Shown here in pieces: positions 10,805 to 42,290 of a DNA stretch of 64,000 nt. The position numbers and the translations under genes are program-made. Within the stretch, counting starts at the first letter, position 1. The number at the start of each line of letters is the position of its first letter. Below the pieces are notes generated by a model that saw nothing but the letters and a program-made list of their open reading frames with translations, was not told where the DNA came from and searched no databases. Origin of the DNA: Gammaproteobacteria bacterium. Lineage in GTDB: Bacteria; Pseudomonadota; Gammaproteobacteria; SZUA-140. Where the stretch lies: positions 15,728 through 79,727 of the forward strand of contig WGFB01000014.1 of assembly GCA_015492435.1 (NCBI GenBank), read 5' to 3'.

Positions 10805-10963
10805 GGAAACTCTGATTAATTCTGGACCGGATGGATGGCGAGATGAAATGTTCCGGACCAAGGCGAAAAGCACAGGTAATAGCGCGCTATTGCCAAGATT
10901 TTCAACGCAGAGCCGGGACATTTCAGCCGCCAGACGCCGGTTTATGAATTGATCAGAGGTTCC
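10805..10963. mobile_element. 159-bp palindromic MITE (Correia-like), copy 1
   Basis: Terminal inverted repeats GGAA(A/C)CTCTGAT(T/C)AATTC ... GAATTGATCAGAGGTTCC. The internal arms and centre are near-identical to copies at 39421..39579 and 42132..42290. Confidence 0.75.
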
Positions 10964-11036
10964 CAAGCCATGATCAATTCAACCCGCGGGAAAGGCGGCA
11001 TTTTAGCGCGATTCCTTGCCGAATTCTAACCCGCCT

Positions 11037-11070
11037 TTCTCACCGGGATGGCGGGCTGACCTGAGCCTGC
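11037..11070. repeat. ~30-bp conserved hairpin motif AACCCGC(A/C)TTTCTCACC(R)GGATGGCGGG, copy 2
   Basis: Near-identical to 1861..1895 and 14364..14398. Stem CCCGCC/GGCGGG. Confidence 0.5.
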
Positions 11071-11112
11071 CTGCGCCGGCCCGTCATCCCGCGGTAATGG
11101 AGTGAACGCAGG

Positions 11113-12057
11113 CTACCGCGTCCCGTGGGAGGGATACAGGGTTTTTCTCAGCCCTTCCGAAAGTGAAATACGCGGCGCCCAGCCACAGGCATCCCGCCAG
11201 GGCGAGGTGTCATGGCATACCCAGTCTTCATGGAGCAATTCCCGCGCCTTGCCAGGGGTCAGCATGGGGGCGTATCCGGCCACGCGGGCCATCTGTCCAT
11301 TGAGCGCGGCGAGGCCACGCAGCGCCCAGGAGGGAAGATAGCATTTCCTCACCCTGGCACCACGGAGGCTGGCAACCGCTGCCACCACATCTTCCCAGCC
11401 ATAACCACCAGCCCGTCCGTCATCCAGTTCATAGACCCCGCTCCGGCCGGATGGCATCTCCAGGCCACATAGAATGGCCCGCACCAGATCATCGACATAG
11501 AGCAGGGAAAAACGCGCTTGCCTGGAGCCGGGAATAAGGGCCAGGCCACGGGCCATCCACTGGAACAAGGGCAGGAGTTCACGGTCGCCGGGACCGTAGA
11601 CCGCCGGCGGACGCAACGCCAGCCACTCCAGCTTCTCTCCCAGAGCGAGAAGGACTTCCTCTCCTCCGCGCTTGCTGGCGGCATAGTGGGACAAGGCGGG
11701 CTCGCGGGCCGCCAGGGAAGACAGCGCGATGAGGCGGGGCGGGCAGGGTTGCGCCAGCACGGCACTGGCCATTTTCCTCACACCTTCCACGTTGACGCGG
11801 TCGAACTGGGCCTGGGTACGGCCGCGCACGGCGCCGGCACAATGGATCACGGCCCTGACACCGCGCGTCAGGTGTTCGAGGCAGTCCTGATCGTCCAGGT
11901 CCCCGCTGATCCATGCGAGGCCCGGCCGGGCCGGTGATTCCAGGGGACGGACGGCCCGCCTGAGGGCGCGCACTTCCCAACCCTGGTCCAGCAACGCCTT
12001 GACCAGGGCGCGCCCGATGAATCCCGTCGCGCCGGTGACTGCTACGCTGCGGGACAC
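11113..12057 (-). CDS. cerR: NAD-dependent epimerase/dehydratase family reductase (bacterial 3-ketodihydrosphingosine/ceramide reductase CerR candidate)
   Basis: 314 aa. N-terminal Rossmann motif VTGATGFIGRALV. It sits between acp and the acyl-ACP synthetase, as in the Caulobacter ceramide cluster. Confidence 0.6.
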   Translation of the reverse strand: MSRSVAVTGATGFIGRALVKALLDQGWEVRALRRAVRPLESPARPGLAWISGDLDDQDCLEHLTRGVRAVIHCAGAVRGRTQAQFDRVNVEGVRKMASAVLAQPCPPRLIALSSLAAREPALSHYAASKRGGEEVLLALGEKLEWLALRPPAVYGPGDRELLPLFQWMARGLALIPGSRQARFSLLYVDDLVRAILCGLEMPSGRSGVYELDDGRAGGYGWEDVVAAVASLRGARVRKCYLPSWALRGLAALNGQMARVAGYAPMLTPGKARELLHEDWVCHDTSPWRDACGWAPRISLSEGLRKTLYPSHGTR

Positions 12058-12090
12058 GGGAGCACCCCTGTCAGGATACGGGGGATGGCC

Positions 12091-39627: not shown

Positions 39628-40887
39628 TCACGCGCTGATCCGGTGGATCGCGGCCCCCAGCCGGGACAATTTCTCCTCGATGCAGTCGTATCCGCGGTCG
39701 AGATGATAAATCCGGTCAATGACCGTCTCGCCCTCTCCCACCAGGCCCGCCAGCACCAGGCTGGCCGAGGCCCGCAAATCCGTCGCCATTACCGGCGCGC
39801 CGTGCAGGCGCTCCACGCCCGTGCAGATAACCGTATTTCCCTCCAGCTTGAGATCCGCGCCCATGCGTTGCAGTTCCGGCACATGCATGAAGCGGTTCTC
39901 GAAAATCGTTTCCGTTATGGTGCTGGATCCGGCCGCCACCACGTTCAGAGCGGTGAACTGGGCCTGCATGTCCGTTGGGAAAGCGGGATAGGGCGCGGTA
40001 TGAATATCCACCGCCCTGGGCCGCCGTCCTCCCATGTCGAGGCTGATCCAGTCATCGCCCGTCTCCACCACCGCGCCGGCCTCGCGCAACTTGGAAAGCA
40101 CCGCATCCAGGGTTTCCGGCCGCGCATTATCTATGCGGATGCATCCCCCGGTAATGGCCGCGGCCACGAGAAACGTACCCGTCTCGATACGGTCAGGCAT
40201 GATATTATACTCAGATCCCCGCAGATGATCGACACCCTCGATGGTAATGGTGTCGCTGCCCGCCCCTGTTATGCGCGCGCCCATGCTGACGAGAAAATCG
40301 GCCAGGTCCACAACCTCTGGCTCGCGGGCCGCGTTCTCGATCACAGTGGTGCCGCGCGCCAGGCAGGCGGCCATCATGATGTTCTCCGTGCCCGTTACCG
40401 TCACCATATCCATGAACAGGCGGGCGCCGCGCAGGGTATCGGCTTCCGCGCGAATATACCCCTCGGCCACCTCGATACTTGCCCCCATGGATTCAAGGGC
40501 GGTGATATGCAGGTCCACGGGCCGCGCGCCGATGGCGCACCCCCCCGGCAAGGAAACCTCCGCGCGGCCAAAACGCGCCAGCAATGGACCCAGCACCAGG
40601 ATAGATGCGCGCATGGTCTTGACCAGATCGTAGGGGGCGCTCAGGGTATGGACATTGGAGGCATCGATCTCCACGTCCATATTCTCATGAATGGTAAGAC
40701 CGACCCCCATCTGCCCCAGGAGTTCCATGGTGGTGGTGATGTCGCGCAGGTGGGGAATATTCTTCAGAAGCACCGGTGTCTCCGCCAGCAGGGAGGCAGC
40801 CATGATGGGCAAGGCCGCATTCTTGGCCGAGGACGCGCGGATGGTTCCGCTGAGCGGATTGCCACCCCGGAGAACCAGTTTGTCCAT
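39628..40887 (-). CDS. murA: UDP-N-acetylglucosamine 1-carboxyvinyltransferase
   Basis: [34 protein letters not shown] is the MurA N-terminus. 419 aa. Confidence 0.9.
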
Positions 40888-41157
40888 TCAGGTGACGCGC
40901 AGATGGCGCGCCTGATCCCATTGCCGCGGGGTATAGGAGCGGATGGAAAGAGCATGAATTTCCGACTGCATGCGGTCTCCCAGCGTGGCATAGACCATGC
41001 GATGCTGTTCCAGCATGCTCTTGCCTTCGAAGGCGGCGGCAACGACCGAGGCCTCGAAATGGGTGCCATCGCCCGTGACGTTGACCTCACTGCCGGGAAT
41101 ACCCGTCTCTATCAAGCGTTTGATATCTTCACATTGCATTATCCGGATCGCCTCCAT
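40888..41157 (-). CDS. BolA/IbaG family protein
   Basis: ...DGTHFEASVVAAAFEGKSMLEQHRMVYATLGDRMQSEIHALSIRSYTPRQW is the BolA fold signature. The gene directly follows murA, as in the murA-ibaG arrangement. Start uncertain (internal Met). Confidence 0.7.
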   Translation of the reverse strand: MEAIRIMQCEDIKRLIETGIPGSEVNVTGDGTHFEASVVAAAFEGKSMLEQHRMVYATLGDRMQSEIHALSIRSYTPRQWDQARHLRVT

Positions 41158-41216
41158 GGAAGAAGCACTGGAATTATTGTAACCTGAATGTGCGGATTCA
41201 GGTGTAACAGAAACCT

Positions 41217-42053
41217 TCAAGCGCCCGTCTGCGAGGGCGCGATCTGCAGCCTGCGGTGACTGATGGAGGGAAATCCCCGCCGGATGCCGCGCAGGCGTTC
41301 AAGATCGATATCCGCCACCACCACCCCGGCGCCATTGGGCAGGCGTTCCAGCACCACCCCCCAGGGATCAACGATCATGCTGTCGCCAAATGTTTCCCGT
41401 CCATTGATGTGGTATCCCCCCTGCGCCGGCGCGATGACGTAACACAGATTCTCTATGGCGCGCACCCGCACCAGGGATTCCCAATGCGCCTTTCCCGTGT
41501 GAGCAGTGAAGGCGGAAGGCACCGCGAAGATCTCCGCGCCCTGATCCAGCATATAGCGGAAAAGCTCGGGAAAGCGCAAATCGTAGCAGACCGCCAGGCC
41601 TATCCTGCCAAAGGGCGTATCCGCCACCACCACCTCGTCACCAGGAAGAATGGTCAATGATTCGGTATAGCTCTCCATGCTGGCCTCGATATGCACGTCG
41701 AACAAATGCATTTTGTCATAGCGGGCCACGCGCGCTCCGCTTCCGTCATACAGCATGCACGCAGCATAGACCTTGCCGGGATCGTCCGTGCTCAGCGGGA
41801 CCGTGCCGCCAACAATCCAGACATCATGAAGGGCGGCCTGGCGGGAGATGAATTCCTGTATGGGACCCTCGCCGTCCTGCTCGCGGCATTTGACCTTGTC
41901 CTCTTCTTCCAGACCCATAATGGCGAAATTCTCCGGCAGAACCACCAGGTCCGCGCCGTGCTCGGCAGCCAGCCCGATAAGCCTTTCCGCCTCGATCAAA
42001 TTGGCGCTGATATTGGGACCCGAGGCCATCTGTACCGCAGCCACGCGACTCAT
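41217..42053 (-). CDS. Carbon-nitrogen hydrolase family protein (nitrilase/omega-amidase-like)
   Basis: 278 aa. Catalytic triad context LVVLPENF (E), YDKMHLFD (K), GLAVCYDLRFPE (C). Confidence 0.8.
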   Translation of the reverse strand: MSRVAAVQMASGPNISANLIEAERLIGLAAEHGADLVVLPENFAIMGLEEEDKVKCREQDGEGPIQEFISRQAALHDVWIVGGTVPLSTDDPGKVYAACMLYDGSGARVARYDKMHLFDVHIEASMESYTESLTILPGDEVVVADTPFGRIGLAVCYDLRFPELFRYMLDQGAEIFAVPSAFTAHTGKAHWESLVRVRAIENLCYVIAPAQGGYHINGRETFGDSMIVDPWGVVLERLPNGAGVVVADIDLERLRGIRRGFPSISHRRLQIAPSQTGA

Positions 42054-42131
42054 TGCATAACCCTCATATTGCTTGCCACCTGAAAAAAATCACAGGCCGT
42101 TGACCATAGCATATTCAGCGATTCAAATTAA

Positions 42132-42290
42132 GGAACCTCTGATCAATTCATGAACCGGCGTCTGGCGGATGAAATGTTCCGGATCAAGGTGAAAAGCGCA
42201 GGTAATAGCGCGCTATTGCCAAGCTTTTCAACGCAGAGCCGGAACATTTCATCTCGCCATCCATCCGGCCCAGAATTGATCAGAGGTTCC
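42132..42290. mobile_element. 159-bp palindromic MITE (Correia-like), copy 3, with arms exchanged relative to copies 1 and 2
   Basis: Same TIRs and same central 57 bp in the same orientation as copies 1 and 2, but the two internal arms are present as reverse complements in swapped positions. Confidence 0.8.

Follow-up and report, generated by a model that had tools for sequence, protein, structure and literature searches.

Three 159-bp palindromic repeats in a gammaproteobacterial genome as a probable miniature transposable element with IS5-type ends and target sites

A 64,000-nucleotide stretch of contig WGFB01000014.1 (assembly GCA_015492435.1, Gammaproteobacteria bacterium, SZUA-140; positions 15,728 to 79,727), here called the window, carries three copies of a palindromic repeat of exactly 159 bp, at 10805..10963 (copy 1), 39421..39579 (copy 2) and 42132..42290 (copy 3). 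These repeats are very probably a non-autonomous transposable element of the miniature inverted-repeat type (MITE) with the ends and the target of the IS5 group, a set of insertion sequences (ISs) of the IS5 family with DDE transposases. An earlier reading, made from the sequence alone, had described palindromic MITEs that form a discrete family and lack a transposase. This description is supported by (i) target-site duplications (TSDs), (ii) unrelated flanking sequences, (iii) further copies in other genomes, (iv) an IS5-family partner with a matching terminal inverted repeat (TIR) and (v) sites in a relative from which the element is absent. All the structural features of a MITE are present: a small non-coding unit, TIRs, TSDs, dispersed copies and an autonomous element with a matching TIR elsewhere.

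The positions and the common length of the repeats, as first reported, were confirmed by reading the sequence and by a pattern search of the window for the 18-bp TIR, GGAACCTCTGATCAATTC, with up to three mismatches. The string was matched six times (10805/10946, 39421/39562 and 42132/42273), exactly at the two ends of each copy and as the sequence-only reading had placed its TIRs, compared with 0.09 matches expected by chance and none of 100 shuffles reaching six. The TIRs are perfect in copies 2 and 3, and the left TIR of copy 1 (GGAAACTCTGATTAATTC) is the only degenerate one. The claim that the three copies are near-identical holds for copies 1 and 2, which are 96% identical, but not for copy 3, whose centre is flipped relative to its arms. 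The core sequence given for all three, AATAGCGCGCTATT, is found in copies 1 and 3; copy 2 reads AATAGCACGCTATT. With the TIR-ATRAAC arm placed first, which is the standard orientation of the family, copies 1 and 2 lie on the minus strand, and copy 3 is mixed, its arms following this orientation on the plus strand and its centre on the minus strand. No fourth copy was found in the 64 kb with a hidden Markov model of the family built from relatives.

A 4-bp direct duplication, which the sequence-only reading had missed, encloses every copy, and beyond it the flanks of copies 1 to 3, as read from the sequence, are unrelated. Copy 1 lies between CAAG at 10801..10804 and its twin at 10964..10967, copy 2 between TTTA at 39417..39420 and its twin at 39580..39583, and copy 3 between TTAA at 42128..42131, a canonical YTAR, and TTGA at 42291..42294, which has one mismatch to TTAA. 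Since the flanks are unrelated beyond these 4 bp, the copies represent separate insertions rather than portions of a larger duplicated segment, the possibility that would have undone the initial description; no duplicated neighbouring sequence was found around the window copies. Of 80 TIR pairs from other genomes, 41 also had identical 4-bp flanks (43 of 83 when the three window copies are included), as did 15 of 29 pairs from metagenome sample Ga0256830. The identical pairs include the non-canonical CGAA, CAAA, TTGA and ATAA, and therefore target preference alone does not explain them. The 4-mer outside 125 TIR ends in other genomes was TTAA at 32, CTAG at 20, CTAA at 17 and TTAG at 12, so that 81 of the 125 (65%) had YTAR, with per-position agreement of 94% for Y, 77% for T, 85% for A and 98% for R. 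As read from these ends, the flank motif equals the target duplication of IS5, 5'-YTAR-3' (PMC5009759). The flanks that were first noted as "TA/AA-rich" are in fact a 4-bp target of the YTAR type.

A candidate partner for these ends was found at locus L063 (6629-7797), where an IS of 1169 bp has the ends GGAACCTCTGATCAATTC and GGAAGGTCTGATCAATT and is flanked by a TTAA/TTAA duplication; one of its ends is thus identical to the MITE TIR. Its open reading frame (ORF) of 318 amino acids (aa) contains the domains DDE_Tnp_1 (PF01609) and DUF772 (PF05598) and reaches 356 bits, against a cut-off of 140, on the NCBIfam model for "IS5 family transposase", NF033581. The second end of this IS, GGAAGGT..., resembles the end of IS5. 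The start of a second such transposase, partial and following a TIR, is present in a gammaproteobacterial metagenome-assembled genome (MAG; L073). The MITE is like IS5 of E. coli and the IS5 group in having a TIR that begins GGAA, a 4-bp YTAR duplication and a DDE_Tnp_1/DUF772 partner. Unlike in that group, the 18-bp string is absent from the searched literature, in an exact-string search with the TIR and its complement, and the interior is unrelated to the IS; the MITE is therefore not a simple deletion derivative of it. The nearest plasmid-borne relatives of the IS5-type element have about 62% protein and 66% DNA identity, in matches that do not cover the ends. The MITE had no match in plasmid records, and the TIR had 0 matches in viral contigs. 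A broader literature search on MITEs and IS5 yielded reviews only.

Further copies, which the initial description had led one to expect, were found by the dozen in other genomes and in one metagenome. An exact TIR scan of one genome per species (596 Gb) returned at least 115 stretches. Among the matches listed, most are from MAGs of marine or sediment Gammaproteobacteria, and the gammaproteobacterial hosts are Sedimenticolaceae, Ca. Thiodiazotropha, Chromatiales, Thiotrichales, Woeseiaceae, Arenicellales and Pseudohongiella; Binatia, Acidobacteriota, Verrucomicrobia and Burkholderiales also occur among them. The 159-bp family itself is represented, among the same listed matches, by 26 full-length relatives from about 20 MAGs. 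Together with window copies 1 and 2, these form an alignment of 28 sequences with 76% mean column identity and lengths of 158-163 bp, mostly 159 bp, in which the 18-bp TIR is conserved. Joint Genome Institute (JGI) metagenomes were also scanned with a 22-base pattern from the arm, and all 39 matches came from sample Ga0256830. This sample contains at least 29 complete copies, with 95% mean pairwise identity and 96.5% identity to copy 2, and these look like the product of a recent burst. The 159-bp family is widespread in marine sulfur-cycle Gammaproteobacteria and appears not to have been described, which is unsurprising given its uncultured hosts.

Variation within the family and among other users of the TIR was also recorded. 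The two TIRs of most relatives differ consistently at one base (alignment A4, columns 13-14/155-156), the left one reading ...CTGATCAATTC and the right one being the complement of ...CTGATTAATTC; window copy 1 shows the same variant at its left end. Variants of 183-184 bp (L071 1037-1219, L080 3403-3585, L091 2163-2346 and others) carry an extra segment of about 24 bp, for example CGCCTTAATAGCGCCTACTGTTGG, in the left half of the centre. The same 18-bp TIR also heads unrelated MITE interiors of ~262, 151, ~110 and 48-87 bp, which likewise carry YTAR flanks (L059 6143-6404, L076 4635-4897, L060 7157-7419, L011 6676-6936 and L088 848-1111; further loci L006/L047/L055, L018/L027 and L070 19-66). 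The ~262-bp family occurs in Pseudohongiella, Ketobacteraceae, Burkholderiales and Verrucomicrobia and is strongly structured, with multiple hairpins (z about -9). A ~110-bp family of Binatia is unstructured, and minimal units of 48-87 bp run from TIR to TIR.

Sites lacking the element were found in a relative from a hydrothermal-vent metagenome, L120, whose HisG is 94% identical to that of the window, the closest outside the species, and whose gene order is the same. The spacer between murA and hisG, which holds copy 2, is 299 bp in the window and 58 bp in L120, and the spacer between the yhdP-like gene and the nitrilase gene, which holds copy 3, is 404 bp and 158 bp, respectively; the element is absent from L120 at both sites. 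At the site of copy 3, homology between L120 and the window restarts exactly at the TTAA that abuts the TIR, a TTAA that L120 has once, and the reconstructed element-free site aligns across the junction. The corresponding reconstruction for copy 2 is CTTGAACGCTTTATTATTAACCCGG. A second relative, L121, with 80% identity, differs in gene order upstream. Proteins identical to HisG and to the nitrilase occur in several MAGs and metagenome assemblies, with DNA that is 99.6-100% identical; no record of the window acyl-carrier-protein (ACP) was found in this same-species comparison. Mobility of the 159-bp element is strongly indicated rather than demonstrated.

Copy 3 is the exception to the uniform build of the family. 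Its arms have to be inverted to match the arms of copies 1 and 2 (91-94% identity), and its central ~55 bp match theirs in the direct sense, so that the centre is flipped relative to the arms. On either side of this inverted module (42184..42238, minus strand) lies one half of a perfect inverted repeat of 15 nt, GATGAAATGTTCCGG / CCGGAACATTTCATC, whose two halves are perfectly complementary over all 15 nt in copy 3 and differ at 2 positions in copies 1 and 2. When copies were oriented by their centres, the arms came in one and the same order in 28 of the 29 copies from genomes and the window and in all 29 from the metagenome. Among the 61 copies examined, the flipped centre was found in window copy 3 alone, and a regular "flip-flop" of the centre was rejected on this count. 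Copy 3 is probably a one-off rearrangement in which the centre was inverted between the inner inverted repeats. Its inversion could be due to recombination or to template switching during replication, and the latter would also account for the perfect complementarity of its inner repeats.

The sequence-only reading also stated that the whole element can fold into one long hairpin, and folding of all three copies as RNA and of copy 2 as DNA bears this out. Predicted RNA folds had energies of -61.6 kcal/mol (z -5.9) for copy 1, -81 kcal/mol (z -10.0) for copy 2 and -99 kcal/mol (z -12.1) for copy 3, and the DNA fold of copy 2 had -52.9 kcal/mol (z -11.5). The consensus hairpin of the 28 aligned sequences comprises 42 pairs, with 95.3% of cells paired. 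Two-sided compensatory changes were found at 22 of the 42 pairs, in 142 cells. The covariation score was 0.326, compared with 0.102 in column-shuffled alignments (0 of 500 shuffles reached 0.326) and 0.03-0.07 when the partners were slid by 1-3 columns. Because covariation exceeds that of both shuffled and slid pairings, the fold-back is actively maintained across lineages. Positions that do not vary include the unpaired CGT of columns 59-61 and CT of columns 107-108, as well as the pair T62.G105; these asymmetric internal loops and the T.G mismatch are invariant in all 28 diverged members.

It is conceivable that this covariation is neutral, as would be the case if correction of the quasi-palindrome, through template switching or repair of an extruded hairpin, copied changes from one arm to the other in the absence of selection. 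Such a process would leave pairing that is symmetric between the strands, which is what we observed, and copy 3 shows signatures of template switching in its perfect 15-nt inner repeats and inverted centre. However, 80 one-sided changes against 3 compensated ones were counted in the young subfamily, which indicates that correction at resident copies is rare. Frequent correction would also have erased the asymmetric loops and the T.G mismatch that persist throughout the 28 members, and the flipped centre is confined to window copy 3. We therefore consider it unlikely that correction explains the covariation. Substitutions per column per copy in the young subfamily were alike at paired (0.025) and unpaired (0.033) positions. 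Together, the excess of one-sided changes and the similar rates mean that resident copies decay freely, with neither selection at individual loci nor continual correction at the DNA level.

Another possibility is that the copies are, or have turned into, cis-regulatory RNA modules of the host. If transcribed with the operons around them, their long hairpin would terminate or attenuate transcription, be processed by RNase III/E or stabilise the mRNA, or the copies would supply an outward promoter, as has been reported for Correia, ERIC and REP elements. All three copies lie between co-directional genes, the RNA hairpins are very stable, the structure is conserved with compensatory changes, the unpaired CGT and CT are invariant, and there is precedent in other MITEs (PMC3184786). 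Several findings speak against this. First, no sigma-70-like promoter and no stem-plus-T-run resembling an intrinsic terminator is present inside any copy. Second, no Rfam family matched anywhere in the window at the gathering threshold, and copy 2, searched at E<=1, matched only a plant microRNA, with 19.6 bits against a gathering score of 100 (E=0.11). Third, a constraint on the RNA of one strand would favour G.U, yet G.T mismatches were not favoured over A.C either between lineages (21 vs 33, the invariant T.G excluded) or within the young subfamily (18 vs 32), so that mismatches are strand-symmetric. Fourth, 7 copies had the same orientation as their co-directional neighbours and 8 the opposite one, a crude count in which neighbours were inferred with a GC3>GC1 filter (G+C content at codon positions 3 and 1) that mis-called one neighbour of copy 1. 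Finally, changes that break pairs are as frequent as changes at unpaired positions, and therefore the hairpin is not under purifying selection locus by locus. The terminator, RNase III and promoter roles put forward with the first description are thus unsupported, in view of the missing consensus sites, the lack of an Rfam family and the lack of an evident orientation bias, and we regard a regulatory role as quite improbable.

The two remaining alternatives fare much worse. That the repeats are non-mobile, being repetitive extragenic palindromic (REP) or REPIN palindromes served by a RAYT, integron recombination sites of the attC type or leftovers of segmental duplication, is extremely improbable: they are palindromic, intergenic and repeated, and a second, REP-like family of 26-nt hairpins occurs in the window, but their boundaries are sharp, 4-bp direct duplications separate them from unrelated flanks with no duplicated neighbouring sequence, they share identical termini with an IS of the IS5 family, their target consensus is YTAR, and, from reading the sequence, no GTTRRRY/RYYYAAC cores lie at their ends. 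REP/REPIN, attC and segmental duplication were rejected as identities on account of the duplications and the IS partner.

There is also next to no probability that the element encodes a small protein, 159 bp being 53 codons, that is translated in frame with a host gene like the Rickettsia palindromic elements. Frame +0 (GTSDQF-MNRRLAAEM...) is indeed open in 15 of the 28 diverged members and 24 of 30 young copies, the other frames being open in 0-2, and gene callers have annotated ORFs over copies in public assemblies. However, frame +0 contains 4 stops compared with 4.6 in column-shuffled alignments (P=0.48), codon positions 1, 2 and 3 are equally variable (0.232, 0.223 and 0.218), with no excess at the third position, members with 1-2-bp indels persist, and no ORF of >=90 aa spans the element in the 28 copies. 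GC1/GC2/GC3 values of the ORFs that overlie the window copies are non-genic, and on the same grounds the ORFs at 10763..10966, 42143..42424 and 42150..42650 are artefacts of the repeat, as had been proposed. Public assemblies of the same organism annotate "genes" of 158-166 aa with no Pfam match, which correspond to the spurious ORF leaving copy 3 (L116 1-179, L123 1904-2380, L124 1904-2404 and L126 992-1492).

Under the preferred reading, a non-autonomous MITE of the IS5 type, the following sequence of events may be proposed. A transposase of the IS5-group DDE type, supplied in trans from elsewhere in the genome, now or formerly, would bind both GGAACCTCTGATCAATTC ends and excise or copy the 159-bp unit, and insertion at 4-bp YTAR-like sites would duplicate those 4 bp. 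The gene-free interior of the unit is the long imperfect palindrome of arm, centre and arm, kept as such by compensatory substitutions in the lineages that spread and left to decay in the copies once inserted. On DNA of about one persistence length, a hairpin or cruciform could bring the two ends together. Compensation between lineages, free decay of resident copies and symmetry between the strands point to a role in propagation, which suggests that the hairpin serves the spread of the element itself, through selection on "master" copies, and not a function for the host at each site. A more specific version, possible but doubtful, is that the 159-bp fold-back and its invariant loop (CGT opposite CT, and T.G) are a requirement in cis for efficient mobilisation by the IS5 group, for example if extrusion of a cruciform or hairpin places both cleavage sites at one four-way junction. 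If true, this would be a structure-assisted mode of transposition not described for the IS5 family, and it would account for the fixation of compensatory changes in spreading lineages only, with decay of the resident copies.

Several observations weigh against the preferred reading of the three repeats. Two of the three window duplications, CAAG and TTTA, are non-canonical for YTAR. The IS and the MITE share the 18-bp TIR only, with no subterminal homology. A tblastn search with the IS5 transposase found no IS5-type transposase in the 64-kb window, in agreement with the initial statement that none is present, and none was found in 288 kb of MITE-bearing metagenome contigs; a transposase partner in the source genome is assumed. 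Intergenic DNA of L120 is diverged, so that only one junction is precise (site 3) and site 2, between murA and hisG, is unalignable. Assemblies of the same species offer no presence/absence polymorphism, as all of them either carry the copies or break there, their contigs and scaffolds ending or having 100-N gaps exactly at the copies. About 17 exact 18-mer matches would be expected by chance in 596 Gb; most of the matches of the TIR scan are real, and some lone ones perhaps are noise. Lastly, the ~110-bp Binatia MITE family with the same TIR is not folded (z -0.6 and +0.3), and on that basis the idea that all MITEs with this TIR need a fold-back was rejected.

In kind, the 159-bp family is an ordinary element and not a new type of system, and several known repeats invite comparison. 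The Correia TIR differs in sequence from GGAACCTCTGATCAATTC, and Correia elements duplicate TA, compared with the 18-bp TIR and 4-bp YTAR duplication of the MITE. Size class, TIRs, intergenic position, many copies, fold-back and the lack of a transposase of their own are common to both. Correia elements (CREE/NEMIS) are confined to Neisseria and have documented promoters and terminator-like behaviour, whereas the MITE is hosted by marine Gammaproteobacteria, and in its copies no promoter or terminator consensus was found and inspection by eye revealed no obvious integration host factor (IHF) site. They measure ~104-157 bp and contain promoters and an IHF site (PMC3184786), and their repeat is 26 bp according to the title of Correia et al. 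1986, as cited in the same paper. "Correia-like", the label of the sequence-only reading, is therefore apt as an analogy but not as an identity, given the different terminal repeat, duplication length and host range. Also similar in one respect are bcr1 of the Bacillus cereus group and ERIC/IRU of enterobacteria, which are ~127-155 bp long and keep their structure by compensatory changes (PMC3184786); bcr1 is also flanked by short direct repeats (PMC3184786). These elements are small like the MITE, but their constraint is described at the RNA level and their transcription is documented, whereas mismatches in the MITE are strand-symmetric and resident copies decay uncompensated; duplication length and TIRs also differ. 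REP/REPIN sequences resemble the MITE in being short, intergenic, palindromic and high in copy number. To our knowledge, REPINs have neither TSDs nor TIR-bearing IS partners and are served by IS200/IS605-like RAYTs, unlike the MITE with its TIRs, duplications and DDE-type partner.

The gene context agrees with the intergenic placement originally given for the three copies, each of which lies between two co-directional genes on the minus strand. Copy 1 is flanked by the ACP gene (10499-10753) and an epimerase-family gene (11113-12057), copy 2 by hisG (38681-39328) and murA (39628-40887), and copy 3 by a CN-hydrolase (nitrilase) gene (41217-42053) and the yhdP-like gene (42458-46246). The region around copy 1 (7519-13896, minus strand) encodes an ABC transporter, a class I/II aminotransferase (BioF/Spt-like), the ACP, then, beyond copy 1, the NAD-epimerase-family protein and an AMP-binding enzyme. 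Judged from Pfam domains only, this cluster resembles those for bacterial sphingolipid or ceramide synthesis, and the label "cerR" given to the epimerase-family gene is plausible. Directly adjoining copy 1 on the plus strand is a degenerate TIR-like string, CAAGCCATGATCAATTC (10964..10980), of uncertain membership in the family; it is the seventh match of the ATGATCAATTC type in the window and may have been left behind by an older insertion at this site. The second repeat family mentioned above is a 26-nt hairpin-like motif, CCCGCNTTTCYCNCCNNNATGGCGGG, which occurs four times on the plus strand (1864-1889, 11030-11055, 14367-14392 and 58006-58031; 0.01 expected), once in the same intergenic region as copy 1 at a distance of 67 bp, and may be a REP-like element. 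Additionally, the heptamer CCTTGTA is repeated in tandem 16.6 times (92% matches) at 17773-17888, apparently between genes, namely the ORFs at 16687-17709 (plus strand) and 17917-19410 (minus strand).

For the study of these uncultured Gammaproteobacteria, the family matters because it breaks short-read assemblies and seeds spurious gene calls of 158-166 aa in public MAGs; its recognition improves binning, annotation and strain comparison. It is also a clean case in which both the TIR and the YTAR target link a MITE family to an IS5-type partner, with one TIR heading unrelated interiors across several phyla. Lineages diverge with compensation, whereas copies of a young burst decay without it, and this contrast makes it possible to test whether the fold-back helps such elements to propagate.

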